Assembly (NCBI GenBank): GCA_026770705.1
Contig: JANJGN010000012.1
Coordinates: forward strand, 29,822,001 to 29,886,000
DNA: 64,000 nt
Origin: Isurus oxyrinchus
Lineage: Eukaryota
Reading direction: 5' to 3'
The position numbers were made by a program, and so were the translations under genes. The notes under the pieces were generated by a model. That model was not told the DNA's origin, did no database searches, and worked only from the letters and a program-made list of their open reading frames with translations. Numbering within the stretch: position 1 is the first letter of the stretch; every line of letters starts with the position of its first letter. Positions 1 through 62,025 of this stretch are shown piece by piece.

Positions 1-152
1 TTCAACTGCAAATGCTCAGACATCCACAGCAGCAGAAACCTCAACATCAACTTCTGTTTCATCAAGTGCAACAGCACAAACTACAGTGAGGTCCACTAAA
101 ACATCAATAACTGAAACAACAACAGCAACTACTCTAGTCCCATCAAAAAGTG
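1..152 (+). CDS. Partial B-family exon (cut by the window edge)
   Basis: Encodes ..STANAQTSTAAETST..LVPSKS, ending AGTG|GTGAGT at 152/153. Confidence 0.8.
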
Positions 153-3100
153 GTGAGTATACGAAAGTACACTTTGCAGATATTACATTCTCAGTCCAGG
201 CAAAATGCAGGAAGGTAGAAACACATAAAGAAATATGAGAAATGATTCTACTGGTGTGTTGTTGGCTAGCATGATGCATTGGACTATCATGCGCTCATGA
301 CTTTTGGTGAAATACCCTCAGTTAAAAACGAGGCTATGTTAGGTAACTCAGGATCTTCCATTATTTATCAGTTTTACCAAATCATAGAGCATAACCTATG
401 TACATAATCATGTGAAAATGACATTGTTTTGATTAATTCTTTGCATCATGGCCATTTGTTACTTGCTTTGCATATCTGACGAAGAAGGCAACTTTTCAGG
501 TTATAACATAATGATGTTGTTCCAGGCATTATGTATACCCCATTCAGTCTATCTTCAATTTCTATAATAGCAGCAACAGAAATTTCAATTGCAAGTACAC
601 AGACATCCACTACATCAGAAGCCACCACATCAGCTCCTGCATCAAGCAGTACGATAGCGATGACAACTGTTGGGAACTTTACAGATGCATCGACCACTGC
701 GGTAACATCCATCACAACATCACTCCCTTCAACAAGTCGTGAGTACATGAGTCCTGTCTTATCACTTTGACCATCACTAATCCTTCCAGCCCACTCCGAG
801 GTATAACAGATTAAACTGGTGAGAGATCAACTGATTATACCAAGGTGCTGGCTACAATTGCCCCAAGTAGAGTTATGCGCAGATTAGATTTGCTCAGTAC
901 TGTTGTTTCAACATGGCAAGATATGTGACTAATTTTCATGAGCTGGGACTTCTCAGAAGTCGATTCTTTGGGCCTGAATTTTAGAATGTTGTTCCATGCT
1001 TTTTGAGTGCTCCCTTAAGCCGATCACCTCTTTTAATAACAGCAGCAACAGAAACTTCAACTGCAAATGCACAGACATCCACAGCAGCAGAAACCTCAAC
1101 ATCAGCTTCTGTTTCATCAAGTGCAACAGCACAAACTACAGTGAGCTCCACTAAAACATCAATAACTGAAACAACAACAGCAACTACTCTAGTCCCATCA
1201 AAAGTCGTGACTATACGAAAGAACACTTTGCAGATATTACATTCTCAGTCCAGGCAAAATGCAGGAAGGTAGAAACACATAAAGAAATGTGAGAAATGAT
1301 TCTACTAGTGTGTTGTTGGTTAGCATGATGCATTGAACTATCATGCGCTCATGACTTTTGGTGAAATACCCTCAGTGAAAAATCAGGCTACGTTAGGTTC
1401 CTCAGGATCTTCCATTATCGGCTTTACCAAATCATAGAGCATAACCTTTGTACAGAAGCTTTGATGTACTCTCCACGCTCACTGCTTACCTCAATAAAAC
1501 ATTGCCTGTTTGAATGTTGGCAGCAGAAATATCGTATTCAAGTACACAGACATCCACGGCAGCACTGACCTCTACGTCTGCTCCTCCCTCAACAAGTGGA
1601 ACAGCATCAACATCCACCGAAGGCTCTACTGAAGGGTCAACAACTGAAGAATCGACAATCACTACGTCACTCCCAACAACAAGAGGTAAGAAAACAAAAG
1701 CAGTCTTTGCAACCATACCATTATGAATTCATTCAAACAGCTGGATGATAGAATTACTTACACAAAAGCTATTGAAACATTACAGGAGTATGTTGTTGTT
1801 ACACTTTCCCACAGTTAACGTTATGTCAAACTCACTTGGTACACTAACGCTGCCACAATTCCCGGCCACATTATCTTTATTAGTGTGTATGAGTAAATGC
1901 GAGTTCCAACAAAAAGTGGGGCACAACTGTTGTTCAAAAACTATCATATATTGTTTCAACTTTGTCATTCCCCTCAATAATAATATATCCCTTCCTCAAT
2001 CACAGTGGCAGAAGTATCAACAAATACACCGACGTCCACATTAGCACCGACTTCTACACCAGCTTCTGCCACAACAAGTACAATAGCACGAACATCTACA
2101 GCAAGCTCGACAGAAGCATCGACATCTGAGGCAACGACAGTTACAACCTCACTCCCTTCATCAAGTGGTGAGTAGCTGAGTGCTCTCTGCTCAGTTCTAA
2201 CATTCAGATTTCGTTCACATACTGAATGTTGAGAAACAGACAATAGACTTGGAAGAATAGAATATAGCATGAAGTCGGCTATGAATGTGCACAGGACAAT
2301 CACGTGAAAATGACATTGTTTTGATTAATTCTTTGCATCATGGCTATTTGTTACTTGCTTTGCATATCTGACGAAGAAGGCAACTTTTCAGCTATAACAT
2401 AATGATGTTGTTCCAGGCATTATATATAACCCATTCAGTCTATCTTCAATTTCCATAATAGCAGCAACAGAAATTTCAATTGCAAGTACACAGACATCCA
2501 CTACATCAGAAGCCACCACATCAGCTCCTGCGTCAAGCAGTACGATAGCGATGACAACTGCCGGGAACACTACAAATGCATCGACCACTGCAGTAACATC
2601 AATCACAACATCACTCCCTTCAACAAGTGGTGAGTACATGAGTCCTGTCTTATCACTTTGACCATCACTAATCCTTCCAGCCCACTCCGAGGTATAACAG
2701 ACTAAACTGGTGAGAGATCAACTGATTATACCAAGGTGCTGGCTACAATTGCCCCAAGTAGAATAATGCGCAGATGAGATTTGCTCAGTAATGTTTCAAC
2801 ATGGCAAGATATGTGACTAATTTTCATGAGCTGGGCCTTCTCAGAAGTCGATTCTTTGGGCCTGAATTTTAGAATGTTGTTCCATGCTTTTTGAGTGCTC
2901 CCCTGAGCCTATCACCTCTTTTAATAACAGCAGCAACAGAAACTTCAACTGCAAATGCTCAGACATCCACAGCAGCAGAAACCTCAACATCAACTTCTGT
3001 TTCATCAAGTGCAACAGCACAAACTACAGTGAGGTCCACTAAAACATCAATAACTGAAACAACAACAGCAACTACTCTAGTCCCATCAAAAAGTGGTGAG

Positions 3101-6100
3101 TATACGAAAGTACACTTTGCAGATATTACATTCTCAGTCCAGGCAAAATGCAGGAAGGTAGAAACACATAAAGAAATATGAGAAATGATTCTACTGGTGT
3201 GTTGTTGGCTAGCATGATGCATTGGACTATCATGCGCTCATGACTTTTGGTGAAATACCCTCAGTTAAAAACGAGGCTATGTTAGGTAACTCAGGATCTT
3301 CCATTATTTATCAGTTTTACCAAATCATAGAGCATAACCTATGTACATAATCATGTGAAAATGACATTGTTTTGATTAATTCTTTGCATCATGGCCATTT
3401 GTTACTTGCTTTGCATATCTGACGAAGAAGGCAACTTTTCAGGTTATAACATAATGATGTTGTTCCAGGCATTATGTATACCCCATTCAGTCTATCTTCA
3501 ATTTCTATAATAGCAGCAACAGAAATTTCAATTGCAAGTACACAGACATCCACTACATCAGAAGCCACCACATCAGCTCCTGCATCAAGCAGTACGATAG
3601 CGATGACAACTGTTGGGAACTTTACAGATGCATCGACCACTGCGGTAACATCCATCACAACATCACTCCCTTCAACAAGTCGTGAGTACATGAGTCCTGT
3701 CTTATCACTTTGACCATCACTAATCCTTCCAGCCCACTCCGAGGTATAACAGATTAAACTGGTGAGAGATCAACTGATTATACCAAGGTGCTGGCTACAA
3801 TTGCCCCAAGTAGAGTTATGCGCAGATTAGATTTGCTCAGTACTGTTGTTTCAACATGGCAAGATATGTGACTAATTTTCATGAGCTGGGACTTCTCAGA
3901 AGTCGATTCTTTGGGCCTGAATTTTAGAATGTTGTTCCATGCTTTTTGAGTGCTCCCTTAAGCCGATCACCTCTTTTAATAACAGCAGCAACAGAAACTT
4001 CAACTGCAAATGCACAGACATCCACAGCAGCAGAAACCTCAACATCAGCTTCTGTTTCATCAAGTGCAACAGCACAAACTACAGTGAGCTCCACTAAAAC
4101 ATCAATAACTGAAACAACAACAGCAACTACTCTAGTCCCATCAAAAGTCGTGACTATACGAAAGAACACTTTGCAGATATTACATTCTCAGTCCAGGCAA
4201 AATGCAGGAAGGTAGAAACACATAAAGAAATGTGAGAAATGATTCTACTAGTGTGTTGTTGGTTAGCATGATGCATTGAACTATCATGCGCTCATGACTT
4301 TTGGTGAAATACCCTCAGTGAAAAATCAGGCTACGTTAGGTTCCTCAGGATCTTCCATTATCGGCTTTACCAAATCATAGAGCATAACCTTTGTACAGAA
4401 GCTTTGATGTACTCTCCACGCTCACTGCTTACCTCAATAAAACATTGCCTGTTTGAATGTTGGCAGCAGAAATATCGTATTCAAGTACACAGACATCCAC
4501 GGCAGCACTGACCTCTACGTCTGCTCCTCCCTCAACAAGTGGAACAGCATCAACATCCACCGAAGGCTCTACTGAAGGGTCAACAACTGAAGAATCGACA
4601 ATCACTACGTCACTCCCAACAACAAGAGGTAAGAAAACAAAAGCAGTCTTTGCAACCATACCATTATGAATTCATTCAAACAGCTGGATGATAGAATTAC
4701 TTACACAAAAGCTATTGAAACATTACAGGAGTATGTTGTTGTTACACTTTCCCACAGTTAACGTTATGTCAAACTCACTTGGTACACTAACGCTGCCACA
4801 ATTCCCGGCCACATTATCTTTATTAGTGTGTATGAGTAAATGCGAGTTCCAACAAAAAGTGGGGCACAACTGTTGTTCAAAAACTATCATATATTGTTTC
4901 AACTTTGTCATTCCCCTCAATAATAATATATCCCTTCCTCAATCACAGTGGCAGAAGTATCAACAAATACACCGACGTCCACATTAGCACCGACTTCTAC
5001 ACCAGCTTCTGCCACAACAAGTACAATAGCACGAACATCTACAGCAAGCTCGACAGAAGCATCGACATCTGAGGCAACGACAGTTACAACCTCACTCCCT
5101 TCATCAAGTGGTGAGTAGCTGAGTGCTCTCTGCTCAGTTCTAACATTCAGATTTCGTTCACATACTGAATGTTGAGAAACAGACAATAGACTTGGAAGAA
5201 TAGAATATAGCATGAAGTCGGCTATGAATGTGCACAGGACAATCACGTGAAAATGACATTGTTTTGATTAATTCTTTGCATCATGGCTATTTGTTACTTG
5301 CTTTGCATATCTGACGAAGAAGGCAACTTTTCAGCTATAACATAATGATGTTGTTCCAGGCATTATATATAACCCATTCAGTCTATCTTCAATTTCCATA
5401 ATAGCAGCAACAGAAATTTCAATTGCAAGTACACAGACATCCACTACATCAGAAGCCACCACATCAGCTCCTGCGTCAAGCAGTACAATAGCGATGACAA
5501 CTGCCGGGAACACTACAAATGCATCGACCACTGCAGTAACATCAATCACAACATCACTCCCTTCAACAAGTGGTGAGTACATGAGTCCTGTCTTATCACT
5601 TTGACCATCACTAATCCTTCCAGCCCACTCCGAGGTATAACAGACTAAACTGGTGAGAGATCAACTGATTATACCAAGGTGCTGGCTACAATTGCCCCAA
5701 GTAGAATAATGCGCAGATGAGATTTGCTCAGTAATGTTTCAACATGGCAAGATATGTGACTAATTTTCATGAGCTGGGCCTTCTCAGAAGTCGATTCTTT
5801 GGGCCTGAATTTTAGAATGTTGTTCCATGCTTTTTGAGTGCTCCCCTGAGCCTATCACCTCTTTTAATAACAGCAGCAACAGAAACTTCAACTGCAAATG
5901 CTCAGACATCCACAGCAGCAGAAACCTCAACATCAACTTCTGTTTCATCAAGTGCAACAGCACAAACTACAGTGAGGTCCACTAAAACATCAATAACTGA
6001 AACAACAACAGCAACTACTCTAGTCCCATCAAAAAGTGGTGAGTATACGAAAGTACACTTTGCAGATATTACATTCTCAGTCCAGGCAAAATGCAGGAAG

Positions 6101-9100
6101 GTAGAAACACATAAAGAAATATGAGAAATGATTCTACTGGTGTGTTGTTGGCTAGCATGATGCATTGGACTATCATGCGCTCATGACTTTTGGTGAAATA
6201 CCCTCAGTTAAAAACGAGGCTATGTTAGGTAACTCAGGATCTTCCATTATTTATCAGTTTTACCAAATCATAGAGCATAACCTATGTACATAATCATGTG
6301 AAAATGACATTGTTTTGATTAATTCTTTGCATCATGGCCATTTGTTACTTGCTTTGCATATCTGACGAAGAAGGCAACTTTTCAGGTTATAACATAATGA
6401 TGTTGTTCCAGGCATTATGTATACCCCATTCAGTCTATCTTCAATTTCTATAATAGCAGCAACAGAAATTTCAATTGCAAGTACACAGACATCCACTACA
6501 TCAGAAGCCACCACATCAGCTCCTGCATCAAGCAGTACGATAGCGATGACAACTGTTGGGAACTTTACAGATGCATCGACCACTGCGGTAACATCCATCA
6601 CAACATCACTCCCTTCAACAAGTCGTGAGTACATGAGTCCTGTCTTATCACTTTGACCATCACTAATCCTTCCAGCCCACTCCGAGGTATAACAGATTAA
6701 ACTGGTGAGAGATCAACTGATTATACCAAGGTGCTGGCTACAATTGCCCCAAGTAGAGTTATGCGCAGATTAGATTTGCTCAGTACTGTTGTTTCAACAT
6801 GGCAAGATATGTGACTAATTTTCATGAGCTGGGACTTCTCAGAAGTCGATTCTTTGGGCCTGAATTTTAGAATGTTGTTCCATGCTTTTTGAGTGCTCCC
6901 TTAAGCCGATCACCTCTTTTAATAACAGCAGCAACAGAAACTTCAACTGCAAATGCACAGACATCCACAGCAGCAGAAACCTCAACATCAGCTTCTGTTT
7001 CATCAAGTGCAACAGCACAAACTACAGTGAGCTCCACTAAAACATCAATAACTGAAACAACAACAGCAACTACTCTAGTCCCATCAAAAGTCGTGACTAT
7101 ACGAAAGAACACTTTGCAGATATTACATTCTCAGTCCAGGCAAAATGCAGGAAGGTAGAAACACATAAAGAAATGTGAGAAATGATTCTACTAGTGTGTT
7201 GTTGGTTAGCATGATGCATTGAACTATCATGCGCTCATGACTTTTGGTGAAATACCCTCAGTGAAAAATCAGGCTACGTTAGGTTCCTCAGGATCTTCCA
7301 TTATCGGCTTTACCAAATCATAGAGCATAACCTTTGTACAGAAGCTTTGATGTACTCTCCACGCTCACTGCTTACCTCAATAAAACATTGCCTGTTTGAA
7401 TGTTGGCAGCAGAAATATCGTATTCAAGTACACAGACATCCACGGCAGCACTGACCTCTACGTCTGCTCCTCCCTCAACAAGTGGAACAGCATCAACATC
7501 CACCAAAGGCTCTACTGAAGGGTCAACAACTGAAGAATCGACAATCACTACGTCACTCCCAACAACAAGAGGTAAGAAAACAAAAGCAGTCTTTGCAACC
7601 ATACCATTATGAATTCATTCAAACAGCTGGATGATAGAATTACTTACACAAAAGCTATTGAAACATTACAGGAGTATGTTGTTGTTACACTTTCCCACAG
7701 TTAACGTTATGTCAAACTCACTTGGTACACTAACGCTGCCACAATTCCCGGCCACATTATCTTTATTAGTGTGTATGAGTAAATGCGAGTTCCAACAAAA
7801 AGTGGGGCACAACTGTTGTTCAAAAACTATCATATATTGTTTCAACTTTGTCATTCCCCTCAATAATAATATATCCCTTCCTCAATCACAGTGGCAGAAG
7901 TATCAACAAATACACCGACGTCCACATTAGCACCGACTTCTACACCAGCTTCTGCCACAACAAGTACAATAGCACGAACATCTACAGCAAGCTCGACAGA
8001 AGCATCGACATCTGAGGCAACGACAGTTACAACCTCACTCCCTTCATCAAGTGGTGAGTAGCTGAGTGCTCTCTGCTCAGTTCTAACATTCAGATTTCGT
8101 TCACATACTGAATGTTGAGAAACAGACAATAGACTTGGAAGAATAGAATATAGCATGAAGTCGGCTATGAATGTGCACAGGACAATCACGTGAAAATGAC
8201 ATTGTTTTGATTAATTCTTTGCATCATGGCTATTTGTTACTTGCTTTGCATATCTGACGAAGAAGGCAACTTTTCAGCTATAACATAATGATGTTGTTCC
8301 AGGCATTATATATAACCCATTCAGTCTATCTTCAATTTCCATAATAGCAGCAACAGAAATTTCAATTGCAAGTACACAGACATCCACTACATCAGAAGCC
8401 ACCACATCAGCTCCTGCGTCAAGCAGTACGATAGCGATGACAACTGCCGGGAACACTACAAATGCATCGACCACTGCAGTAACATCAATCACAACATCAC
8501 TCCCTTCAACAAGTGGTGAGTACATGAGTCCTGTCTTATCACTTTGACCATCACTAATCCTTCCAGCCCACTCCGAGGTATAACAGACTAAACTGGTGAG
8601 AGATCAACTGATTATACCAAGGTGCTGGCTACAATTGCCCCAAGTAGAATAATGCGCAGATGAGATTTGCTCAGTAATGTTTCAACATGGCAAGATATGT
8701 GACTAATTTTCATGAGCTGGGCCTTCTCAGAAGTCGATTCTTTGGGCCTGAATTTTAGAATGTTGTTCCATGCTTTTTGAGTGCTCCCCTGAGCCTATCA
8801 CCTCTTTTAATAACAGCAGCAACAGAAACTTCAACTGCAAATGCTCAGACATCCACAGCAGCAGAAACCTCAACATCAACTTCTGTTTCATCAAGTGCAA
8901 CAGCACAAACTACAGTGAGGTCCACTAAAACATCAATAACTGAAACAACAACAGCAACTACTCTAGTCCCATCAAAAAGTGGTGAGTATACGAAAGTACA
9001 CTTTGCAGATATTACATTCTCAGTCCAGGCAAAATGCAGGAAGGTAGAAACACATAAAGAAATATGAGAAATGATTCTACTGGTGTGTTGTTGGCTAGCA

Positions 9101-12100
9101 TGATGCATTGGACTATCATGCGCTCATGACTTTTGGTGAAATACCCTCAGTTAAAAACGAGGCTATGTTAGGTAACTCAGGATCTTCCATTATTTATCAG
9201 TTTTACCAAATCATAGAGCATAACCTATGTACATAATCATGTGAAAATGACATTGTTTTGATTAATTCTTTGCATCATGGCCATTTGTTACTTGCTTTGC
9301 ATATCTGACGAAGAAGGCAACTTTTCAGGTTATAACATAATGATGTTGTTCCAGGCATTATGTATACCCCATTCAGTCTATCTTCAATTTCTATAATAGC
9401 AGCAACAGAAATTTCAATTGCAAGTACACAGACATCCACTACATCAGAAGCCACCACATCAGCTCCTGCATCAAGCAGTACGATAGCGATGACAACTGTT
9501 GGGAACTTTACAGATGCATCGACCACTGCGGTAACATCCATCACAACATCACTCCCTTCAACAAGTCGTGAGTACATGAGTCCTGTCTTATCACTTTGAC
9601 CATCACTAATCCTTCCAGCCCACTCCGAGGTATAACAGATTAAACTGGTGAGAGATCAACTGATTATACCAAGGTGCTGGCTACAATTGCCCCAAGTAGA
9701 GTTATGCGCAGATTAGATTTGCTCAGTACTGTTGTTTCAACATGGCAAGATATGTGACTAATTTTCATGAGCTGGGACTTCTCAGAAGTCGATTCTTTGG
9801 GCCTGAATTTTAGAATGTTGTTCCATGCTTTTTGAGTGCTCCCTTAAGCCGATCACCTCTTTTAATAACAGCAGCAACAGAAACTTCAACTGCAAATGCA
9901 CAGACATCCACAGCAGCAGAAACCTCAACATCAGCTTCTGTTTCATCAAGTGCAACAGCACAAACTACAGTGAGCTCCACTAAAACATCAATAACTGAAA
10001 CAACAACAGCAACTACTCTAGTCCCATCAAAAGTCGTGACTATACGAAAGAACACTTTGCAGATATTACATTCTCAGTCCAGGCAAAATGCAGGAAGGTA
10101 GAAACACATAAAGAAATGTGAGAAATGATTCTACTAGTGTGTTGTTGGTTAGCATGATGCATTGAACTATCATGCGCTCATGACTTTTGGTGAAATACCC
10201 TCAGTGAAAAATCAGGCTACGTTAGGTTCCTCAGGATCTTCCATTATCGGCTTTACCAAATCATAGAGCATAACCTTTGTACAGAAGCTTTGATGTACTC
10301 TCCACGCTCACTGCTTACCTCAATAAAACATTGCCTGTTTGAATGTTGGCAGCAGAAATATCGTATTCAAGTACACAGACATCCACGGCAGCACTGACCT
10401 CTACGTCTGCTCCTCCCTCAACAAGTGGAACAGCATCAACATCCACCGAAGGCTCTACTGAAGGGTCAACAACTGAAGAATCGACAATCACTACGTCACT
10501 CCCAACAACAAGAGGTAAGAAAACAAAAGCAGTCTTTGCAACCATACCATTATGAATTCATTCAAACAGCTGGATGATAGAATTACTTACACAAAAGCTA
10601 TTGAAACATTACAGGAGTATGTTGTTGTTACACTTTCCCACAGTTAACGTTATGTCAAACTCACTTGGTACACTAACGCTGCCACAATTCCCGGCCACAT
10701 TATCTTTATTAGTGTGTATGAGTAAATGCGAGTTCCAACAAAAAGTGGGGCACAACTGTTGTTCAAAAACTATCATATATTGTTTCAACTTTGTCATTCC
10801 CCTCAATAATAATATATCCCTTCCTCAATCACAGTGGCAGAAGTATCAACAAATACACCGACGTCCACATTAGCACCGACTTCTACACCAGCTTCTGCCA
10901 CAACAAGTACAATAGCACGAACATCTACAGCAAGCTCGACAGAAGCATCGACATCTGAGGCAACGACAGTTACAACCTCACTCCCTTCATCAAGTGGTGA
11001 GTAGCTGAGTGCTCTCTGCTCAGTTCTAACATTCAGATTTCGTTCACATACTGAATGTTGAGAAACAGACAATAGACTTGGAAGAATAGAATATAGCATG
11101 AAGTCGGCTATGAATGTGCACAGGACAATCACGTGAAAATGACATTGTTTTGATTAATTCTTTGCATCATGGCTATTTGTTACTTGCTTTGCATATCTGA
11201 CGAAGAAGGCAACTTTTCAGCTATAACATAATGATGTTGTTCCAGGCATTATATATAACCCATTCAGTCTATCTTCAATTTCCATAATAGCAGCAACAGA
11301 AATTTCAATTGCAAGTACACAGACATCCACTACATCAGAAGCCACCACATCAGCTCCTGCGTCAAGCAGTACGATAGCGATGACAACTGCCGGGAACACT
11401 ACAAATGCATCGACCACTGCAGTAACATCAATCACAACATCACTCCCTTCAACAAGTGGTGAGTACATGAGTCCTGTCTTATCACTTTGACCATCACTAA
11501 TCCTTCCAGCCCACTCCGAGGTATAACAGACTAAACTGGTGAGAGATCAACTGATTATACCAAGGTGCTGGCTACAATTGCCCCAAGTAGAATAATGCGC
11601 AGATGAGATTTGCTCAGTAATGTTTCAACATGGCAAGATATGTGACTAATTTTCATGAGCTGGGCCTTCTCAGAAGTCGATTCTTTGGGCCTGAATTTTA
11701 GAATGTTGTTCCATGCTTTTTGAGTGCTCCCCTGAGCCTATCACCTCTTTTAATAACAGCAGCAACAGAAACTTCAACTGCAAATGCTCAGACATCCACA
11801 GCAGCAGAAACCTCAACATCAACTTCTGTTTCATCAAGTGCAACAGCACAAACTACAGTGAGGTCCACTAAAACATCAATAATTGAAACAACAACAGCAA
11901 CTACTCTAGTCCCATCAAAAAGTGGTGAGTATACGAAAGTACACTTTGCAGATATTACATTCTCAGTCCAGGCAAAATGCAGGAAGGTAGAAACACATAA
12001 AGAAATATGAGAAATGATTCTACTAGTGTGTTGTTGGCTAGCATGATGCATTGGACTATCATGCGCTCATGACTTTTGGTGAAATACCCTCAGTTAAAAA

Positions 12101-50984: not shown

Positions 50985-51015
<31 letters not shown>

Positions 51016-54000
51016 ACCTTAAACCAGCTTATATTTCAACTCTTTCCTGGACTCGAAATCAAGTTCTGTCGAAGGGTCATGAAGACTCGAAACGTCAACT
51101 CTTTTCTTCTCCGCCGATGCTGCCAGACCTGCTGAGTTTTTCCAGGTAATTCTGTTTTTGTTTTGGATTTCCAGCATCTGCAGTTTTGTTTTGTCTTGTA
51201 CTAATCCTTCCAGCCCACTCCGAGTTATAACAGACTAAACTGGTGAGAGATCAACTGATTATACCAAGGTGCTGGCTACAATTGCCCCAAGTAGAATAAT
51301 GCGCAGATTAGATTTGCTCAGTACTGTTGTTTCAACATGGCAAGATATGTGACTAATTTTCATGGGCTGGGACTTCTCAGAAGTCGATTCTTTGGGCCTG
51401 AATTTTAGAATGTTGTTCCATGCTCTATGAGTGCTCTCTAAATTCTATCACCTCTTTTAATAACAGCAGCAACAGAAACTTCAACTGCAAATGCACAGAC
51501 ATCCACAAGAGCAGAAAGCTCAACATCAGCTTCTGTTTCATCAAGTGCAACAGCACAAACTACAGTGAGGTCCACTAAAACATCAATAACTGAAACAACA
51601 AAAGCAACTACTCTAGTCCCATCAAAAAGTCGTGAATATACAAAAGAACACTTTGCAGATATTGCATTCTCAGTCCAGGCAAAATGCAGGAAGGTAGAAA
51701 CACAAAGAAATGTGAGAAATGATTCTACTAGTGTGTTGTTGGCTAGCATGATGCATTGGACTTTCATGCGCCCATGACGTTTAGTGAAATACCCTCAGTT
51801 AAAAACGAGGCTACGTTAGGTTACTCAGGATCTTCCATTATTTATCGGTTTTACCAAATCGTAGAGCATAACCTTTGTACAGAAGCTTTGATGTACTCTC
51901 CATGCTCACTGCTTACCTCAATAAAACATTGCCTGTTTGAATGTTGGCAGCAGAAACATCGTATTCAAGTACACAGACATCCACGGCAGCACTGCCCTCT
52001 ACGTCTGCTCCTCCCTCAACAAGTGGAACAGCATCAACATCCATCACAGGCTCTACTGAAAGGGCAACAACTGAAGAATCGACAATCACTACATCACTCC
52101 CAACAACAAGAGGTAAGAAAACAAAGCACTCTTTGCAACCATTCCATTATGAATACATTCAAATAGCTGGACGATAGAATTACTTACACAAAAGCTATTG
52201 AAACATTACAGGAGTATGTTGTTGTTACACTTTCCCACAGTTAACGTTATGTCAAAATCTCCTGGTACTCTAACGCTGCCACAATTCTCGGCCACGTTAT
52301 CTTTCTTAGTGTCTTTGAGTAAATGCGAGTTCCAACAAAATTGGGGCACAAATGTTGTTCAAAAACTTTCATATATTGTTCCAACTTTTCCATTTCTCTC
52401 AATAACAATATATTCCTTCTTCAATCACAGTGGCAGAAGTATCAACAAATACTCAGACATCCACAGTAGCACCGACCTCTACATCAGCTCCTGCCACAAC
52501 AAGTACAATAGCACCAACATCTACAGCAAGCTCGACAGAAGCATCGACATCTGAGGCAACGACAGTTACAACCTCACTCCCTTCAACAAGTGGTGAGTAG
52601 CTGAGTGCTCTCTGCTCAGTTCTAACATTCACATTTCTCTCACCTACTGAATGTTGAGAAACAGACAATAGACTTGTAAGAAAAGAATATAGTTGGCTAT
52701 GAATGTGGAGAGGACAATCTTGTGAAAATGACATGGTTTTGATTACATCTTTGCAAAATGGCCATTTGTTAATTGCTTTGCATATCTGACAAAGAAGGCA
52801 ACTTTTCAGGTATAATTTAATGATGTTGTTCCAGGCATTATGTATACCCCATTCAGTCTTTCTTCAATTTTCATAATAGCAGCAACAGAAATTTCAACTG
52901 CAAGTATACAGACATCCACTACATCAGAAGCCACCACATCAGCTCCTGCCTTAAGCAGTACGATAGCGATGACAACTGCTGGGAGCTCTACAGATGCATC
53001 AACCACTTCAGTAACATCAATCACAACATCACTTCCTTCAACAAGTGGTGAGTGCACGAGTCCTGTATTATCACTTTGACCATCACTAATCCTTCCAGCC
53101 CACTCCGTGGTATAACAGACGAAACTGGAGAGAGATCAACTGATTATACCAAGATGCTGGCTTCAATTCCCCCAAGTAGAATAATGTACTGATGAGCTTT
53201 GCTCAGTACTGTTGTTTCAACATGGCAAACTACGTTACAAATTTTCATGAGCTGGGAGTTCTTAGAAGTCGATTCTTTGGGCCAGAATTTTAGAATGTTG
53301 TTCCACGCTTTTTGAGTGCACCCTTAAGCCTATCACCTCTTTTAATAACAGCAGCAACAGAAACTTCAACTGCAAAAGCACAGACATCCACAGCAGCAGT
53401 AACTTCAACATCAGCTTCTGTTTCATCAAGTGCAACAGCACAAAGTACAGTGAGCTCCACTAAAACATCAATAACTGAAACAACAACAGCATCTACTCTA
53501 GTCCCATCAAAAAGTGGTGAGTATACGAAAGTACACTTTGCAGATATTACATTCTCAGTCCAGGCAAAATGCAGGAATGTAGAAACACATAAAGAAATGT
53601 GAGAAATGATTCTACTAATGTATTGTTGGCTAGAATGATGCATTGGACAATCATGCAGTCATGACTTTTGGTGAAATACCCTCCATTGAAACGAGGCTAC
53701 AATATGTTACTCAAGAGCTTCCATTACTTACTGGTTTTACCAAATCAGTGAGCATAACCCATGTGCAGAAGCTTTGATATACTCTCCATGCTCTCTGCTT
53801 ACCTCAATAAAACATTGCCTGTTTGAATTTTGGCAGCAGAAATATCATCTTCAAGTACACAGGCATCCACGGCAGCACTGACCTCTACATCTGCTCCTCC
53901 CTCAACAAGTGGAACAACATCAACATTTACCGCACGTTCTACTGAAGGGTCAACAACAGAAGAATCGACAATCAGTATGTCACTCTCAACAACACGTGGT

Positions 54001-57000
54001 GAGAAAACAAAAGCACTCTTTGCAACCATTCCTTTATGAATTCATTCAAACTGCTGGATGTTAGAATTACATACTGAAAAGCTATTGAAATATTACAGGA
54101 GTATGTTGTTGCTACAATTTCCCAGTTTTAATGTTACGTCAAACTGTCTGGGTACTCTAACGATTACCGGCCACATATCTTTCTTAGTGTCTTTCAGTAA
54201 ATGCGAGTTCCAACAGAAATTGGGGCACAAATATTGTTCAAAAACTTTAATATATTGTTCCAACTTTTTCATTTCCCTCAATAACAATATATCCCTTCTT
54301 CAATCACAGTGGCAGAAGCATCAACAACAAATACACAGACGTCCACAGCAGCACCGACTCCTACATCAGCTCCTGCTTCAACAGGTACAATAGCACCAAC
54401 ATCTACAGCAAGCTCGACAGAAGCATCGACATCTGAGGCAACGACAGTTACAACCTCACTCCCTTCATCAAGTGGTGAGTTGCTGAGTGCTCTCTGCTCA
54501 GTTCTACCATTCAGATTTCTTTCACCTATTGAATGTTAAGAAACAGACAATAGACTTGGAAGAATAGAATATAGCATCAAGTTGGCTCTGAAAGTGCAGA
54601 GGACAATCAGGTGAAAATGACACTGTTTTGATTAATTCTTTGCAACATGGTCATTCGTTATTTTCTTTGCATATCTGACGAAGAAGGCAACTTTTCAGCT
54701 ATATTATAAAGATGTTGTTCCAGGCATTATGCATAACCCATTCAGTCTAACTTCAATTTTCATAATAGCAGCAACAGAAATTTCAATTGCAAGTACACAG
54801 ACATCCACTACATCAGAAGCCACCACATCAGCTCCTGCGTCAAGCAGTACAATAGCGATGACAACTGCCGGGAACTCTACAGATGCATCGACCACTGCAG
54901 TAACATCAATCACAACATCAATCCCTTCAACAAGTGGTGAGTACATGAGTCCTGTCTTATCACTTTGACCATCACTAATCCTTCCAGCCCACTCCGAGGT
55001 ATAACAGACTAAACTGGAGAGAGATCAACTGATTACAGCAAGGTGCTGGCTACAATTGCCCCAAATAGAATCATGCGCAGATGAGATTTGCTCAGTGCAG
55101 TTGTTTCAACATGGCAAGCTATGTTACTAATTTTCATGAGCTGGGAGGTCTTAGAAGTCGATTCTTTGGGCCAGAATTTTAGAATGTTGTTCCATGCTTT
55201 TTGAGTGCACCCTTAAGCCTATCACCTCTTTTAATAACAGCAGCAACAGAAACTTCAACTGCAAATGCACAGACATCCACAGCAGCAGAAACCTCAACAT
55301 CAGCTTCTGTCTCAACAACTGCAACAGCACAAACTACAGTGAGCTCCACTAATACATCAATAACTGAAACAACAACAGCAACTACCCTAGTCCTATCAAA
55401 AAGTGGTGAGTATACGAAAGTACACTTTGCAGATATTACATTCTCAGTCCAGGCAAAATGCAGGAAGGTAGAAACACATAAAGAAATGTGAGAAATGATT
55501 CTACTAATGTATTGTTGGTTAGAATGATGCATTGGACTATCATGCGCTCATGACTTTTGGTGAAATGCCCTACACTGAAATGAGGCTACATTATGTTACT
55601 CAAGATCTTCCATTATTTTCTGGTTTTACCAAATCATAGGGCATAACCTTTGTGCAGAAGCTTTTATATACTCTCCATGCTCTCTGCTCACTTCAATAAA
55701 ACATTGCCTGGTTGAACGTTGGCAGCAGAAACATCGCATTCAAGTACACAGAGTTAATGTTATGTTAAACTGTCTTGGTACTCTAACGTTGCCACAATTT
55801 TCGGCCACGTGATCTTTCTTAGTGTCTTTCAATAAATGCGAGTTCCAACAAAAAGTGGGGCACGAATGTTGTTCAAAAACATTCATATATTGTTTCATCT
55901 TTTTCATTTCGAACAATAAAAATATATCCTTTCTTCAGTCACAGCAGCAGAAGCATCAACAATAAATACTCAGACATCCACAGTAGCACCGACCTCTACA
56001 TCAGCTCCTGCCACAACAAGTACAATAGCACCAACATCTACAGCAAGCTCGACAGAAGCATCGACATCTGAGGCAACGACAGTGGCAGCCTCACTCCCTT
56101 CATCAAGTGGTGAGCAGCTGAGTGCTCTCTAATATTCTGAATTATTTCACCTACTGAATGTTGAGAAACAGACGATAGACTTGTAAGAAAAGAATGTAGC
56201 ATGTAGTTGGCTATGATTGTGCAATCTTGTGTAAATGACATTGTTTCGATTAATTCTTTGTTAAATCTCCATTTGTTACTTGTTTTGAATATCTGATGAA
56301 GAAGGCAACTTTTCAGCTATAATATAACGATGTTGTTCCAGGCATTATGTATACCCCATTCAGTTTTTCTTCAATTTTCATAATAGCAGCAACAGAAATT
56401 TCAACAGCAAGTACAGAGACATCCACTACATCAGAAGCCACCACATCAGCTCCTGCCTCAAGCAGTATGATAGCGATGACAACTGCCGGGAGCTCTACAG
56501 ATGCATCGACCACTGCAGTAACATCAATCACAACATCAATCCCTTCAACAAAGGGTGAGTATATGAGTCCTGTATTATCACTTTGACCATCCCTAATCCT
56601 TCCAGCCCACTCTGAGGTATAACAGACTAAACTGGAGAAAGATCAACTGATTATACCAAGGTGCTGGCTACAATTGCCCCAAGTAGAATAATGCACAGAT
56701 GAGCTCTGCTCAGTACTGTTGTTTCAACATGGCAAACTACGTTACTAATTTTCATGAGCTGGGATTTCTTAGAAGACGATTTATTGGGCCAGATTTTTAG
56801 AATGTTGTTCCATGCTTTTTGAGTGCTCCCTTAAGCCCATCAACTCTGTTAATAACAGCAGCAAACAAAACATCAACTGCAAATGCACAGACATCCACAG
56901 CAGCAGAAACCTCAACATCAGCTTCTGTTTCATCAAGTGCATCAGCACAAACTACAGTGAGCTCCACTAAAACATCAATAACTGAAAAAACAACAGCCAC

Positions 57001-60000
57001 TACTCTACTCCTACCTGCAAGTGGTGAGTATACGAAGGTACACTTTGCAGATATTACATTCTCAGTCCAGGCAAAATGCAGGAACGTAGAAACACAAAGA
57101 AATGTGAGAAATGATTCTACTAATGTATTGTTGGCTGGAATGATGCATTGGACAATCATGCGCTCATGATTTTTGGTGAAATACCATCCGTTGAAACGAG
57201 GCTACATTATGTTACTCAAGAGCTTCCATTATTTTCTGGTTTTACCAAATCATAGAGCACAACTTTGTGCAGAAGCTTTGATATACTCTCCATGCTCTCT
57301 GCTTATCTCAATAAAACATTGCCTGTTTGAATGTTTGCAGCAGAAACATCGTCTTCAAGTACACAGACATCGACGGCAGCACTGACCTCTACATCTGCTC
57401 CTCCCACAACAAGTGGAACAACATCAACATTCACCGCACGCTCTACTGAAGAGTCAACAACGGAAGAATCGACAATCAGTATGTCACTCTCAACAACAAG
57501 TGGTGAGAAAACAAAAGCACTTTTTGCAACCTTTCCTTTATGAATTCATTCAAACTGCTGGACAATAGAATTATGTACTCAAAAGCTATTGAAACATTAC
57601 AGGAGTATGTTGTTGTTATAATTTCCCAGTTTTAATGTTATGTCAAACTGTCTTGGTACTCTAACGATTACCAGCCACATATCTTTCTTAGTGTCTTTCA
57701 GTAAATGCGAGTTCCAACAAAAATTGGGGCACAAATATTGTTCAAAAACTTTCATGTATTTTTCCAACTTTTTCATTTCCCTCAATAACAATATATCCCT
57801 TCTTCAATCACAGCGGCACAAGCATCAACAGCAAATACACAGACATCCACAGTAGCACCGACCCCTCCATCAGCTCCTTCCTCAACAGGGACAATAGCAC
57901 CAACATCTACAGCAAGCTCGACAGAAGCATCGACATCTGAGGCAACGACAGTTACAACCTCACTCCCTTCAACAAGTGGTGAGTGGCTGAGTGCTCTCTG
58001 CTCACTTCTAACATTCTGATTTCTTTCACCTACTGAATGTTGAGAAACGGACAATAGACTTGGAAGAGTAGAATATAGCATCAAGTTGGCTCTGAATGTG
58101 CAGAGGACAATCATGTGCAAATGAAATTGTTTTGATTAATGCTTTGCAACATGGTCATTCGTTACTTTCCTTGCATATCTGGTGAAGAAGGCAACTTTTC
58201 AGCTATAATATAACAATGTTGTTCCAAGCATTATGTATACCCCATTCAGTCTAACTTCAATTTTCATAAAAGCAGCAACAGAAATTTCAACTACAAGTAC
58301 ACAGACATCCACTACATCAGAAGCCACCACATCAGCTCCTGCCTCAAGCAGCATGATAGCGATGACAACTACTGGGAGCTATACAAATGCATCGACTATT
58401 GCAGTAACATCAATTACAACATCACTCCCTTCAACAAGTGGTGAGTATGTGAGTCCTGTATTATCACTTTGACCATCACTAATGCTTTCAGCCCACACCG
58501 AGGTTTAACAGACTAAACTGGAGAGAGATCAACTGATTACAGCAAGGTGCTGGCTACAATTGCCCCAAGTAGAATTATGCGCAGATGAGGTTTACTCAGT
58601 ATTGTTGTTTCAAGACGGCAAGCTAAGTTACTAATTTTCATGAGCTGGGACTTCTTAGAAGTCGATTCTTTGGGCCAGATTTTTAGAATGTTGTTCCACA
58701 CGTTTTGAGTGCTCCCTTAAGCCTATCACCTCTTTTAATAACAGCAGCAACAGAAACTTCAATTGCAAATGCACAGACATCTACAGCAGCAGAAACCTCA
58801 ACATCAGCTTCTGTTTCATCAAGTGCAACAGCACAAACTACAGTGAGCTCCAATAAAACATCAATAACTGAAGCAACAACAGCCACTACTCCACTCCCAT
58901 CAACAAGTGGTGAGTATACGAAAGCAAGCTTTGCAGATATTACATTCTGAGTCTAGGCAAGATGCAGGAAGGTAGAAACACATAAAGAAATGTGAGAAAT
59001 GATTCGACTAGTGTATTGTTGGCTAGAATGATGCATTGGATAATCAGGCATCGAGTTTACATTAGGTTACTCAGGAGCTTCCATTATTTATCGGTTTTAA
59101 CAAATTATACAGCACAACCTTTGTGCAGAAGCTTTGATATACTCTCCATGCTCTCTGCTTACTTAAATAAAACATTTCCTGTTTGAATGTTGTCAGCAGA
59201 AACATCATATTCAAGTACACAGACATCCACAGCAGCACTGACCTCTATGTCTGCTCCTCCCTCAACAAGTGGAACAGCATCAACATCCACCACAGGCTCT
59301 ACTGAAGGGTCAACAGCTGAAGAATCGACAATCACTACGTCACTCCCAACAACAAGAGGTGAGAAAACAAAAGCACTCTTTGCAACTATTCCATTTTGAA
59401 TTCATTCACACAGCTGGATGATAGAATTACTTACTGAAAAGCTATTGAAACATTACAGGAGTATGTTGTTGTTATACTTTCCCACAGTTAATGTTATGTC
59501 AAACTCTCTTGGTACTCTAACGCTGCCACAATTCCCGGCCACGTTATCTTTCTTAGTTTCTTTGAGTAAATGCGAGTTCCAACAAAAAGTGGGGCACAAA
59601 TGTTGTTTAAAAACTTTCATATATTGTTCCATCTTTTTCATTTCCCTCAATAACAATATATCCCTTCAATCACAGTGGCAGAAGCATCAACATCAAATAC
59701 ACAGATGTCCACAGTAGCACCGACCTCTACATCAGCTACTGCCTCAACAATTACAATAGCACCAACATCTACAGGAAGCTCAACAGAAGCATCGATATCT
59801 GAGGCAACGACAGTGACAACCTCACTCCGTTCATCAAGTGGTGAGTAGCTGAGTGCCCTCAACTCAGTTCTAACATTCTGATTTCTTTCACCTACTGAAT
59901 GTTGAGAAACAGACAATAGACTTGTAAGAAAATAATATAGCATGTAGTTGGCTATGTGAAAATGACAATCATGTGAAGATGACATTGTTTTGATTAATTC

Positions 60001-60298
60001 TTTGCATCATGGCCATTTGTTACTTGCTTTGCATATCTGACGAAGAAGGCAACTTTTCAGCTGTAATATAAAGATGTTGTTCCGGGCATTATGTATACCC
60101 CATTCAGTCTATCTTCAATTTTCATAATAGTAGCAACAGAAATTTCAACTGCAAGTACACAGACATCCACTACATCAGAAGCCACCACATCAGCTCCTGC
60201 TTTAGGCAGTACTATAACGATGACAACGGCCGGGAGCTCTACAGGTGCATCGACCACTGCAGTAATATCAATCACAACATCACTCTCTTCCATAAGTG
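1..60298 (+). CDS. Internal part of a giant multi-exon mucin-like (Ser/Thr/Ala-rich) gene; about 124 tandem exon modules; 5' and 3' ends lie outside the recognisable region
   Basis: Each S/T-rich segment is bounded by an AG acceptor and a GT donor (mostly G|GTGAGT or G|GTAAGA). Lengths are 159-168 nt, multiples of 3, and always phase 1-1. Frames stay open in the diverged copies checked, while introns take indels. No signal peptide, VWD, SEA or transmembrane domain is seen, so the family cannot be named. Confidence 0.85.
571..738 (+). CDS. A-family exon, variant A' (168 nt); repeats at 3514, 6457, 9400 and 12343
   Basis: Acceptor ttctataatag|CAGCAACAG; donor AGTC|GTGAGT; encodes AATEISIASTQTSTTSEATTSAPASSSTIAMTTVGNFTDASTTAVTSITTSLPSTS. 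Confidence 0.75.
1043..1206 (+). pseudogene. B' exon variant (164 nt): frameshifting and with a weakened donor; probable pseudo-exon or terminal exon; 13 copies
   Basis: Reads TCAAAAGTC|GTGACT versus TCAAAAAGTG|GTGAGT in intact B. That is a 1-bp deletion plus changes at donor positions -1 and +5. Confidence 0.65.
1524..1685 (+). CDS. C-family exon (162 nt), representative copy
   Basis: Acceptor tgttggcag|CAGAAATA; donor AGAG|GTAAGA; encodes AEISYSSTQTSTAALTSTSAPPSTSGTASTSTEGSTEGSTTEESTITTSLPTTR. The pyrimidine tract is weak. Confidence 0.7.
2006..2167 (+). CDS. D-family exon (162 nt), representative copy; missed by the ORF track
   Basis: Acceptor cccttcctcaatcacag|TGGCAGAA; donor AGTG|GTGAGT; encodes VAEVSTNTPTSTLAPTSTPASATTSTIARTSTASSTEASTSEATTVTTSLPSSS. 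Confidence 0.8.
2462..2629 (+). CDS. A-family exon (168 nt), representative copy
   Basis: ttccataatag|CAGCAACAG ... AGTG|GTGAGT; encodes ..AMTTAGNTTNASTTAVTSITTSLPSTS. Confidence 0.8.
2931..3095 (+). CDS. B-family exon (165 nt), representative intact copy
   Basis: ctcttttaataacag|CAGCAACAG ... AAAAGTG|GTGAGT; encodes AATETSTANAQTSTAAETSTSTSVSSSATAQTTVRSTKTSITETTTATTLVPSKS. Confidence 0.8.
17177..17344 (+). CDS. A* exon (168 nt) with a GTTAGT donor; 6 copies
   Basis: AGTG|GTTAGT at 17344/17345; read-through gives GGT TAG. Confidence 0.6.
18138..18296 (+). CDS. C2 exon (159 nt) using the distal AG; 6 copies
   Basis: gttggctgcag|AAATATCG ... AGAG|GTAAGA; still phase 1-1. Confidence 0.65.
18616..18780 (+). 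CDS. D2 exon (165 nt, one extra Thr codon relative to D)
   Basis: tcacag|TGGCAGAAGCATCAACAACAAAT ... AGTG|GTGAGT. Confidence 0.78.
27060..45300. repeat. Mosaic of 2,943-bp-type and 3,789-bp-type units
   Basis: Offsets: 27085 to 30028 (2943), 30028 to 33817 (3789), 37603 to 40546 (2943), 38658 to 41601 (2943). Diagnostic SNPs switch type within units. Confidence 0.9.
50021..50419 (+). pseudogene. C-terminal GIY-YIG endonuclease fragment of a Penelope-like element
   Basis: Open frame KRCNTCP..FTCISPNLVYCIRCSQCGLLYIGETKRNLGDRFAEH..RKLEEQHLIFRLGTLQPSGLN: the VY..CxxC..YIGET, R, E and GLN motifs of PLE endonucleases. No reverse transcriptase is present. Confidence 0.9.
50703..50854. repeat. 152-bp near-perfect palindrome (75-bp arms, 2-nt loop)
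   Basis: ACTCAGCAGG...ACAGAAC aa GTTCTGT...CCTGCTGAGT, with 2 mismatches by eye. Confidence 0.95.
50779..50817 (+). ncRNA. Minimal hammerhead-ribozyme-like motif with a variant core, copy 1
   Basis: AGTT-CTGTCGA-AGGGTC atgag GACTC-GAAAC-GTC^AACT. Stem I is AGTT/AACT, stem II is GGGTC/GACTC, stem III is the palindromic ACGT. The core is CUGUCGA rather than CUGANGA. Confidence 0.55.
50955..51017. repeat. Compound microsatellite (CT)n-(C)n-(CA)n
   Basis: Read directly from the sequence. Confidence 0.95.
51062..51100 (+). ncRNA. Minimal hammerhead-ribozyme-like motif, copy 2
   Basis: AGTTCTGTCGAAGGGTCATGAAGACTCGAAACGTCAACT, inside a ~125-bp direct repeat of 50778-50903. Confidence 0.55.
55726..55752 (+). 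pseudogene. Truncated C exon (about 263-bp deletion removing most of the exon and its donor)
   Basis: ..CAAGTACACAGA joins directly to GTTAATGTTATG of the C-D intron. Confidence 0.85.
60131..60298 (+). CDS. Last recognisable exon of the array (A family, 168 nt)
   Basis: ttcataatag|TAGCAACAG ... ATAAGTG|GTGAGT; frame is open. Confidence 0.75.
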
Positions 60299-60419
60299 GT
60301 GAGTATATGATTGCTGTCTTAACACTTTAACCATCACTAATCCTTCCAGCCCACTCCGGGGTTTAAAAGACTAAATTGGAGATAGATCAACTAATTATGG
60401 CAAGGTGCTGGCTACCACT

Positions 60420-61531
60420 TGTAAAATCAGCATGCTGTGATCACACACTATCTCACTATCTGCACGAAGGCATCGGACTCACCTGCTTGGGCCTTGATGT
60501 CCACATGTGTGCAGTCTATTGCACCCTGTACTCAGTAGAAGCCAGCAATGGCCGTGAAGCCTCTTGCTCACTCTGCCTGACTTGCCTGATCCCAATGGCA
60601 GTGGATGAATGTTAACGCATGTTTAAACAGAGCGTCTGTAACCTGCTTGACACAAGTGTGGACAGCTGATTGGGAGACACCACAATGATCATCCCCAACC
60701 CCTGGAAGGAGCCAAAAGCATAGAAGTTGAGGGCAGCTTTGACCTTCTGAACCACTGGAACTGGGTGGCCACCCACACAGTTAGTGGCAATCTCAGGCTC
60801 TATCATCTCACAGATATAGTTAATTGTCTCCCTTGATAGCCGGAGCCTTCTTCAGCACTGCACCATCAGACATATTGAGGTAGGTGCTTCTCCGCCTTTA
60901 TACCCTGGCATCTGGATAGTGGCATCTTCTGTCGCCCCTTCCGCTCTTGACTATCTCTTGGCCCTGCACCCCTTGTGCCTGCGCCTGTCCTCCCAAAGGT
61001 GGCTCCCCTGGAGGCTGAATGTGCTCTCCTGGCCTCCTCCCGCTTCTTGCCCTCCCTTCCTCCTCAGAGAAGCTGCCTCCAGTGGACAGTTCAGCTCCGA
61101 TTCCCAGGCTAAGGGAAGGCTTCCTGAAACCTGCAGGCCCAGAAAACATTACTCATTGCAGGGTGATGACCTGAAGGTTAAGAGTCCAGAAAAAGCAGCT
61201 GGAGAGCGTTTTGAAGTAGTGCAGATCACACAGGCAAGTTTCAAAAACTTTCAAAAATAAATATTTGACTGTGCACACTCGCGACCACAGTGAGCCCCCT
61301 TATCTCGCCCGTGGATGAGGTTAATCCAAATGTATCCTAACCGCCTTCCCGTCGCGCCCATGTGCCAACCCGAAGATTGCACAGGTGTCGAAAAATTGGC
61401 GTTGATTGCTGAGTCAAGGGTTTTAAGTTGCCGGTTAATTAATGGTGGGCATGTGTTGGACATCATCACATGCCCACCCAGCAAAATATTGCGATGACCC
61501 GCCCCCACCTGCTAATGGAAAAACTCCACCT
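60420..61531 (-). mobile_element. Decayed PIF/Harbinger DNA transposon fragment (HARBI1-like DDE transposase N-terminus)
   Basis: Minus strand, with frameshifts and stops: RRLRLSRETINYICEMI..KVKAALNFYAFGSFQ..CGVSQSAVHTCVKQVTDAL..FTAIAGF*VQGAIDCTHVDIKA (GAIDCTHV at 60502-60525). Possible terminus near 61,530; boundaries are approximate. Confidence 0.85.
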
Positions 61532-61589
61532 CTGCAGTCACACCCTCCTGTCGCTGATCACAGACCAAATTTGAATGACCAAATCTGAG

Positions 61590-62025
61590 GGCAAAGTGTG
61601 CAGGTAACTCTCCCCTTGCCTGATGTGGCGCAATGCCTGCAGCTCAGGCTCCAGCTCCTCAACTCGGACCCGAAGTGCTGCAAACACTTACTACAGATGT
61701 GTCCACTCTGGATCACCTTGGTGTCCAGCAGGCCCCACATGCTGCAGCAGCAACACATCACCTGTCCTGCCATCACTATCACATTTTATTCAATTATTTA
61801 TTTAATTACTCTCGTATCCCTGCTCCTAACACTTGAAGAATCCTCACTCTTTACACTTTATTGTCATATTTTTTTACATATCAGTATCGACCTTATACTC
61901 AACAACTATTTCTTACGAAACGAGAAAAAAATACTAGAGACCTGAACACAAATTAAAGACCTTACTTTTACTTTAAAGAATAAAAATACTCACAAATCCT
62001 ACTCACCAATCAGCTGCTCTCCGCA
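61590..62025 (-). mobile_element. CR1-type LINE 5' fragment (5' UTR plus ORF1 N-terminus)
   Basis: From the ATG at 61773: MAGQVMCCCCSMWGLL..HICSKCLQ, then a frameshift into LRVRVEELEPELQALRHIRQGESYL. This resembles the zinc-finger/leucine-zipper start of CR1 ORF1. Confidence 0.7.

Follow-up and report, generated by a model that had tools for sequence, protein, structure and literature searches.

Arrays of symmetric mini-exons predicted to encode the stalk of a MUC16-family mucin, with a partial tandem duplicate, in the shark Isurus oxyrinchus

Results and Discussion

Our analysis concerns a 64,000-nt stretch of the 4.98-Gb genome of the shark Isurus oxyrinchus (assembly GCA_026770705.1; contig JANJGN010000012.1, here C12, positions 29,822,001-29,886,000), hereafter the window. 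The exons in this window are real and coding, and they are predicted to specify the stalk, rich in Ser and Thr, of a MUC16-family mucin. Judged by its setting in the continuous 944 kb that were examined, window included, the exon array belongs to a 5′-partial tandem duplicate, consisting of promoter region, predicted signal exon and stalk and without SEA or transmembrane (TM) exons of its own. With little more than even confidence, we lean towards read-through transcription of this array, with splicing to the complete copy that lies downstream; two promoters would then yield mucins of different length, one long and one short. Positions marked w are C12 positions minus 29,822,000 and extend the window numbering.

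The exon array

Modules were located by BLAST with four seed exons, and exon boundaries were then projected. The window is nearly all one direct-repeat array (1-60,298, plus strand), the window part of what we call array 1. It holds 124 modules, all on the plus strand and belonging to four families (A-D) in ABCD and AB runs. Intact modules (110 of 124) are flanked by AG and GT, divisible by three, stop-free and of phase 1-1, with lengths of 159-168 nt, or 53-56 codons (39 of 165 nt, 34 of 162 nt, 31 of 168 nt and six of 159 nt); the first of them starts 13 nt upstream of base 1. Concatenated, these 110 exons read through 6,034 aa without a stop, with 30.9% Thr and 24.6% Ser (together 55.5%), 15.2% Ala and little Pro (4.6%). 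When the broken B copies described below are joined in as well, the reading frame meets a stop codon after 179 aa. Among the 122 introns that could be measured, the median length is 307.5 nt, and 121 fall between 277 and about 440 nt. The first-pass annotation had claimed some 110 frame-preserving modules among 124 in four families, introns of 0.3-0.4 kb and roughly 6,000 aa of Ser/Thr-rich sequence, and BLAST with boundary projection bore out each of these figures.

DNA identity among the four families is 67-73% (alignment scores of 150-175 versus at most 69 for 50 shuffles each), and many modules have diverged to 89-95% identity. Examples on the plus strand are 571-738 (family A, 168 nt, phase 1-1, with C at position -1 of the donor of this copy), 2,931-3,095 (family B, intact, 165 nt), 1,524-1,685 (family C, 162 nt; the homologous AG is gone and an in-frame CAG 3 nt downstream would serve) and 2,006-2,167 (family D, 162 nt). 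Five 2,943-bp units of six modules each occupy 1-14,715 (plus strand). Units one to four are nearly identical, with 0-2 differing bases, and unit five departs from them at 6-7; either a very recent expansion or an uncertain copy number in the assembly would account for this. The single outlier among the introns (1,494 nt) results from a retroelement insertion inside an A-B intron at 50,020-51,210. The element, which we take to be Penelope-like, contains a GIY-YIG endonuclease fragment (Pfam E 1.2e-5), and both flanking exons are still in frame.

The partial duplicate and the complete copy downstream

Signal exon 1, array 1, a duplication junction, signal exon 2, array 2, nine SEA domains, a TM exon and a tail exon follow each other on one strand. 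Array 1 as a whole has 190 modules (w -30,464 to 60,298) and begins about 30 kb upstream of the window. Its final exon, of family A (60,131-60,298, plus strand), has kept an intact donor, GTG/GTGAGT. About 120 bp into the following intron, across a short shared stretch, the sequence switches to a copy of w -61,959. From this junction at approximately 60,417 a 26-kb block runs to w 86,628 (60,417-64,000 within the window, plus strand) and copies w -61,959 to -30,500 at 93-95%; the two blocks show 4.7% mismatch over 24,758 aligned bases. Each block carries a 70-nt ATG exon of 23 codons with a hydrophobic core and a phase-1 donor, a predicted signal-peptide exon, which was located as a conserved island against the upstream paralogue and is conserved in three copies. 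The exon lies at w -56,586 to -56,517 in copy 1, outside the window, and at w 65,756-65,825 in copy 2. The two are identical at 69 of 70 positions, the difference being one synonymous base, and the proximal approximately 200 bp before them agree at 216 of 218 positions; neutrality of both copies is rejected (P 0.001). No SEA or TM exon lies between the end of array 1 at 60,298 and the second signal exon. The first-pass annotation had missed this duplicate, which has no 3′ end of its own; the extension of the array beyond the window lay outside its view.

The junction sits inside a dispersed transposon-like repeat (60,417-61,500) that is longer in the upstream copy; presumably it is Harbinger-like, which no Pfam hit confirms. 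A 35-bp tandem repeat of 9.2 copies (62,050-62,366) occurs in the upstream duplicate too. Isolated decayed modules with a stop or frameshift are present in the first intron of both copies (w -44,640, -38,748 and -30,476, with their copies at 77,766, 81,119 and 86,657) and were likely broken before the duplication.

The complete copy continues with array 2, about 158 modules at w 86,659-164,021, of which approximately 150 are intact (four modules failed automatic boundary projection). SEA repeat 1 follows at w 169,091-173,028, then 11 modules rich in Pro, Thr and Ser (PTS; array 3, w 174,755-179,831) and then seven more repeats. In total there are nine SEA domains of about 140 aa, eight of them tandem, with four exons each, and one juxtamembrane (SEA block, w 169,091-232,045). 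SEA 1 has two cysteines separated by 18 residues. Both the exon for the TM segment (w 239,493) and the one holding the tail and the stop codon (w 241,297) are conserved in the paralogues and in other sharks and rays. At the first exon of SEA 2 (w 181,026) we noted an apparent GC donor, bridged by an RNA contig of run X6; SEA 1 has GT there, across a 4-bp gap. Of the domain sets that the first-pass annotation had considered for the flanks, the SEA/TM type is present, in a MUC16-like form. The exons after the arrays comprise SEA, one TM and a stop, and neither VWD/CK nor GAIN/7TM is among them, where no dedicated VWD or GAIN search was made.

Selection on the reading frame

Residue identity in the modules is unconstrained and only the frame is constrained. 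The ratio of nonsynonymous to synonymous variants (pN/pS, as distinct variants per site) is 1.04-1.08, with 1.08 in array 1. Nonsense variants are absent from array 1 versus 6.3-7.4 expected (P 0.0006-0.002), and from the window alone versus 4.7-5.1 expected; the four "nonsense" variants of array 2 are single-site calls, and a real stop is found in just one module there. Indels, counted after alignment duplicates had been collapsed by hand, are in-frame or frameshifting at 3:1 in array 1 exons versus 6:27 in introns (P 0.038), and at 7:0 versus 11:57 in array 2 (P 1.6e-5). Modules were furthermore clustered at 4.7%, which yields lineages at least as old as the duplication. Three of 47 array 1 lineages are wholly broken, versus 14.5 expected had the array been neutral since the duplication (P 5e-5), and five of 77 versus 23.7 in array 2. 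The test points to translation of array 1 in the time after the duplication.

Splicing in RNA contigs

Four of eight listed sequencing runs, available to us as contigs only, were aligned to w 172,001-182,000 at 80% likeness. Splicing at the predicted AG/GT sites was seen in the downstream copy, where RNA contigs join modules belonging to the families present in the window. SEA exons 3 and 4 are connected by a GT-AG joint in runs X3 and X6; other GT-AG joints lead from SEA exon 4 into the first array 3 module (X3), between the fourth and fifth modules of array 3 (X6), and from the final array 3 module into the next SEA. One 537-nt X6 contig continues through three SEA exons. In X3 and X6 the end of a B-type exon meets exactly the predicted acceptor of the last array 2 module at w 163,863, a B-to-D joint. 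Two joints use shifted splice sites; paired with the ends predicted on the opposite side, these give in-frame exons, one of 165 nt and one of 153 nt. Three further joints between module-like pieces could not be placed, having non-canonical ends or undetermined letters in between. Most array 3 modules have no joint, and the uncovered parts carry no weight. Every PTS joint that was placed connects adjacent exons, and none skips an intact module among these few joints from four runs over one 10-kb stretch at low depth. For window positions 57,700-60,400 no matching RNA contig is listed among the eight runs, which is uninformative on expression.

Identity of the gene

The closest solved matches of one SEA exon are human MUC16 structures (E 1.7e-5), and the SEA of the white-shark orthologue matches human and mouse MUC16 structures at E 1.9e-16 to 3.6e-14, versus 1.2e-4 for a protease SEA. 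Eight of nine homologues of one SEA exon are shark or ray proteins called "mucin-16-like" or mucin-16, the closest being from lamniform sharks, and 16 of 19 in a second search are named mucin-16 or mucin-16-like. Pfam recognizes SEA in eight stretches of the white-shark orthologue (model P0003; E 2.6e-134), which aligns exon by exon to the downstream copy at 82-100% identity. Single SEA exons by themselves match Pfam weakly (E 0.004, below the cut-off), and the solved homologues settle the SEA fold.

Human MUC16, ADAMTS10 and MYO1F are described at one locus, TCO (PMC8220141), and chicken chromosome 28 is reported to carry the same three genes (PMC5703906, PMC1552070). ADAMTS10 and MYO1F were expected beforehand as neighbours, and an ADAMTS exon and a class I myosin were then found, both on the same strand as the mucin. 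The ADAMTS exon (C12:30.97 Mb, 0.9 Mb downstream) is 98% identical to Heterodontus ADAMTS10, its whale-shark match being labelled ADAMTS6-like. In both Heterodontus and the whale shark, the contig bearing this match has the same listed length as the contig of the species' mucin-16-like model. The myosin lies at C12:31.17 Mb, 1.1 Mb downstream, and may be MYO1F or another paralogue. None of 24 candidate exons from the 180 kb downstream, when scanned with Pfam, pointed to a neighbouring gene. Nine SEA domains with TM and tail, MUC16 as the best solved matches and ADAMTS10 synteny identify the locus, at the level of sequence, as a shark MUC16-like transmembrane mucin with at least four tandem paralogues. 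From composition and family the stalk would be densely O-glycosylated and the protein located at the apical surface.

Broken modules and splice-site loss

Thirteen of the 124 modules are B copies of 164 nt with a -1 frameshift, on the plus strand between 1,043 and 41,804. Their starts are 1,043, 3,986, 6,929, 9,872, 12,815, 15,758, 19,547, 23,336, 27,125, 30,068, 33,857, 38,698 and 41,641. They carry the one frameshift event of the window, and all 13 have a degraded donor, GTC/GTGACT, as well. One module of 124 is a truncated C (55,723-55,753, plus strand) with most of the exon and the donor deleted. An alternative donor, in frame and stop-free, was sought in one broken B copy and none was found there. 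Because their donor is degraded and, in the copy tested, has no such substitute, broken B modules are predicted to be skipped, which phase symmetry would make harmless. Skipping of broken modules, the only kind that the sequence requires, would be constitutive rather than regulated. Since every frameshifted B copy has the degraded donor and an in-frame B copy at 51,467 has a similarly weak one, the pattern suggests that donor loss preceded the frameshift.

Some intact copies have weaker donors, too (six GTG/GTTAGT, five GTC/GTGAGT and one GTC/GTGAAT), and the family C acceptor is poor. Tandem acceptors of NAGNAG-like type (e.g. at 2,929-2,940) are widespread, with at least two in-frame AGs within 9 nt in 117 of 123 modules, so that losing one AG, as in all C copies, costs just 1-2 codons. 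Over the whole of array 1 the broken modules include 18 frameshifted B, five truncated C and two donor-less B copies, all amplified.

Possible products of the duplicated stalk

According to the read-through that we favour, a transcript from the upstream promoter would pass over the second signal exon, because this is a first exon without an evident acceptor, and the last array 1 donor (w 60,298) would join the first intact array 2 module (w 87,134) across 26.8 kb. This distance is close to the length of the gene's own first intron, measured up to the first intact module (26.5 kb), and the last array 1 exon has a strong donor and has inherited no terminator. The stalk made via the upstream promoter would comprise approximately 8,950 + 8,170 + 360 aa, with a further 1,300-1,400 aa or so for SEA, TM and tail. 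In all, a mucin of about 19,000 aa would arise from the upstream promoter and one of about 10,000 aa from the downstream promoter. Intact modules would mostly be included, and those losing a splice site would drop out harmlessly because every exon is of phase 1-1. Length would change mainly by unequal crossing-over of 0.95-, 1.9- and 2.9-kb units.

Several observations weigh against this proposal or weaken its basis. Poly(A)-like hexamers occur from 61,256 to w 65,297, one of them (AATAAA, 63,367) followed by a U/GU-rich tract, so that early termination would be possible. Neither array 1 nor an array 1-array 2 joint received an assignable contig; the contig pieces match array 2 at least as well by mismatch counts, most of the seven being ambiguous. 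The runs were considered RNA by guess, and their joints, at a depth of 2-6, come from a single 10-kb stretch outside the window. Conservation of promoter and signal exon is compatible with constraint on only one of the copies (P 0.13). The lineage test is rough, as it assumes independent lineages and flank mutation rates, and gene conversion could lower the effective number of lineages. We think it improbable that the two promoters form a length switch (about 19,000 versus 10,000 aa) over some 320 intact exons whose inclusion is further varied by splicing.

Regulated or stochastic exon inclusion, by which one allele would produce many stalk lengths, is a possibility that we hold only tentatively. 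It is consistent with the phase 1-1 symmetry of all exons, the tandem in-frame acceptors, the weaker donors of some intact copies and the poor family C acceptor. Precedents are also described, namely Xenopus FIM-C.1 (PMC7177656), a chicken MUC2 variant (PMC3549977) and shorter MUC16 transcripts (PMC10829539). On the other hand, tandem duplication of a single phase 1-1 exon yields the same symmetry and needs no regulation, all placed PTS joints link neighbours, and chicken MUC2 is reported to be without massive alternative splicing (PMC3549977). The first-pass annotation had proposed a splice-tunable mucin. A Ser/Thr-rich mucin domain of symmetric exons stands, and the adjacency of all placed PTS joints does not speak for tunability. 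Appreciable skipping of intact modules, which could accompany read-through as well as the secreted product considered next, appears rather doubtful to us.

A separate gene for a secreted, anchor-less mucin is unlikely. The last donor would be read through to a stop about 10 codons into the intron, with polyadenylation at 61-65 kb. Several features would fit such a gene: the duplicate has a signal exon to itself, array 1 has stayed under selection after it was duplicated, neither SEA nor TM comes before the next signal exon, and the AATAAA at 63,367 has its U/GU-rich tract. It is at odds with the consensus donor kept by the last exon and with the finding of no dedicated terminal exon. The block that holds the hexamers, moreover, is a copy of upstream intergenic DNA, and hexamers of this type are frequent in such sequence.

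We give somewhat less credence still to a duplicate that is silent or was recently silenced, in which the array would go on expanding by unequal crossing-over and carry dead modules along. The larger broken share in array 1 than in array 2 (28/191 versus about 10/160) and the lack of any contig piece assignable to array 1 would agree with silence. However, a small number of events accounts for the broken copies (3-4 of 47 lineages), nonsense variants number zero, the signal exon and proximal promoter are nearly unchanged, and the complete upstream paralogue likewise has 16 of 78 modules broken. Non-coding satellite-like DNA or an assembly artefact, to which the near-identity of the first four 2,943-bp units might point in that their number may be wrong, is largely refuted and very improbable: stops and frameshifts are avoided, splice sites are conserved, contigs of sister modules are spliced, many modules are diverged, and 4.7% divergence of the duplicated blocks is too high for a haplotype duplicate.

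The paralogue cluster

The cluster extends upstream by three further paralogues, all of which have SEA and TM exons. The nearest is complete (w -176,339 to -94,495), with its signal exon at w -176,339, five SEA domains, TM and tail, and has 78 related modules, of which 62 are intact by automatic projection and 11 are B-like without GT. The second has a predicted single PTS exon of 7,056 nt and phase 1-1 (w -299,689 to -292,634; 2,351 aa), with 35% Ser plus Thr, 15% Pro and short imperfect repeats, and a repeat element directly behind it. The third, which is the fourth paralogue of the cluster (w -453,842 to -370,446), is more diverged and has SEA, TM and tail exons. Its Ser/Thr region seems to be short and dispersed, and there is a resemblance to the juxtamembrane SEA in two of its exons.

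In other species, the Heptranchias model P0004 has Ser/Thr repeats with a clear 57-residue period before its SEA domains, periodicity is weak in the whale shark, and there is none in the short N-termini of rays. The basking-shark model P0002 and the white-shark model P0003 start inside SEA 2 and have no signal exon, arrays or SEA 1. In the eight mucin-16-like models P0001-P0008 (up to 2,000 aa) the sequence ahead of the first SEA never exceeds about 700 residues. Public shark annotation likely misses most of the gene and protein.

Comparison with known mucins

We found no description of the locus in the literature searched, most subscription journals and all supplements lying outside the search, and a term search of the main text of a shark skin proteome gave no mention of MUC16 (PMC10707392). 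Multi-exon mucin domains and the idea of tuning them by splicing are already published, for chicken Muc13 in 2006; new are the sheer number of exons, the partial duplicate on which selection acts, and a neighbouring paralogue whose PTS sequence sits in a single large exon. Our findings will mainly interest specialists in mucins and splicing, the underlying principle being about twenty years old and not new.

Human MUC16 is one gene. Its amino domain of 12,068 aa is described as encoded in nine exons and its repeats by five exons each (PMC3431878), with 19 repeats of 156 aa and shorter transcripts in one tumour (PMC10829539). Like human MUC16 as described there, the shark protein is predicted to be type I, with a large N-terminal Ser/Thr domain, multi-exon tandem SEA domains with a cysteine pair, a TM segment and a short tail; the cysteines are separated by 18 residues in shark SEA 1 and by 19 in human MUC16 (PMC10829539). 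Unlike human MUC16, the shark has some 350 modules of about 55 codons, nine SEA domains with a PTS block between SEA 1 and 2, and at least four paralogues plus a partial duplicate. The MUC16 family can thus build its stalk from hundreds of symmetric mini-exons instead of a few giant ones.

The first-pass annotation had contrasted the array with mammalian PTS domains carried mainly in one large exon, and this contrast was overstated, since chicken Muc13 and MUC2 are reported as multi-exonic (PMC1552070, PMC3549977). In chicken Muc13 each PTS repeat occupies one exon, and control of length by splicing was proposed, not demonstrated (Lang, Hansson and Samuelsson 2006, PMC1552070); zebrafish Muc13 was said to be similar and the multi-exon design was suggested to be ancestral (PMC1552070). 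The shark gene is like chicken Muc13 in being an SEA/TM mucin with one PTS repeat per exon. Chicken Muc13, however, is described with only one SEA and with 20-aa repeats numbering at least 12, whereas the four alternating families of the shark together exceed 300 exons, each of 53-56 aa. The PTS cassettes of chicken MUC2 are reported to span exons 32-44; a single splice variant, in frame, was found there, and alternative splicing on a massive scale was not detected (PMC3549977). Xenopus FIM-C.1 is called polymorphic via alternative splicing (PMC7177656, citing Hauser and Hoffmann 1992). Both of these differ in being secreted and in their VWD or TFF domains, and MUC2 in its far fewer repeat exons. 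The human MUC3A/MUC3B/MUC12/MUC17 genes are described as a tandem SEA mucin cluster with a duplicate pair 92-93% identical and PTS domains of 5,291 and 13,089 aa (PMC9578598). It differs from the shark cluster in that its PTS domains are single-exon and both duplicates are complete genes (PMC9578598). In the shark, both PTS designs occur among paralogues of one cluster, which bears on the 2006 proposal of an ancestral multi-exon design. Furthermore, many of its exons can be told apart by individual bases, so that long reads could directly test the idea of mucin length under splicing control.

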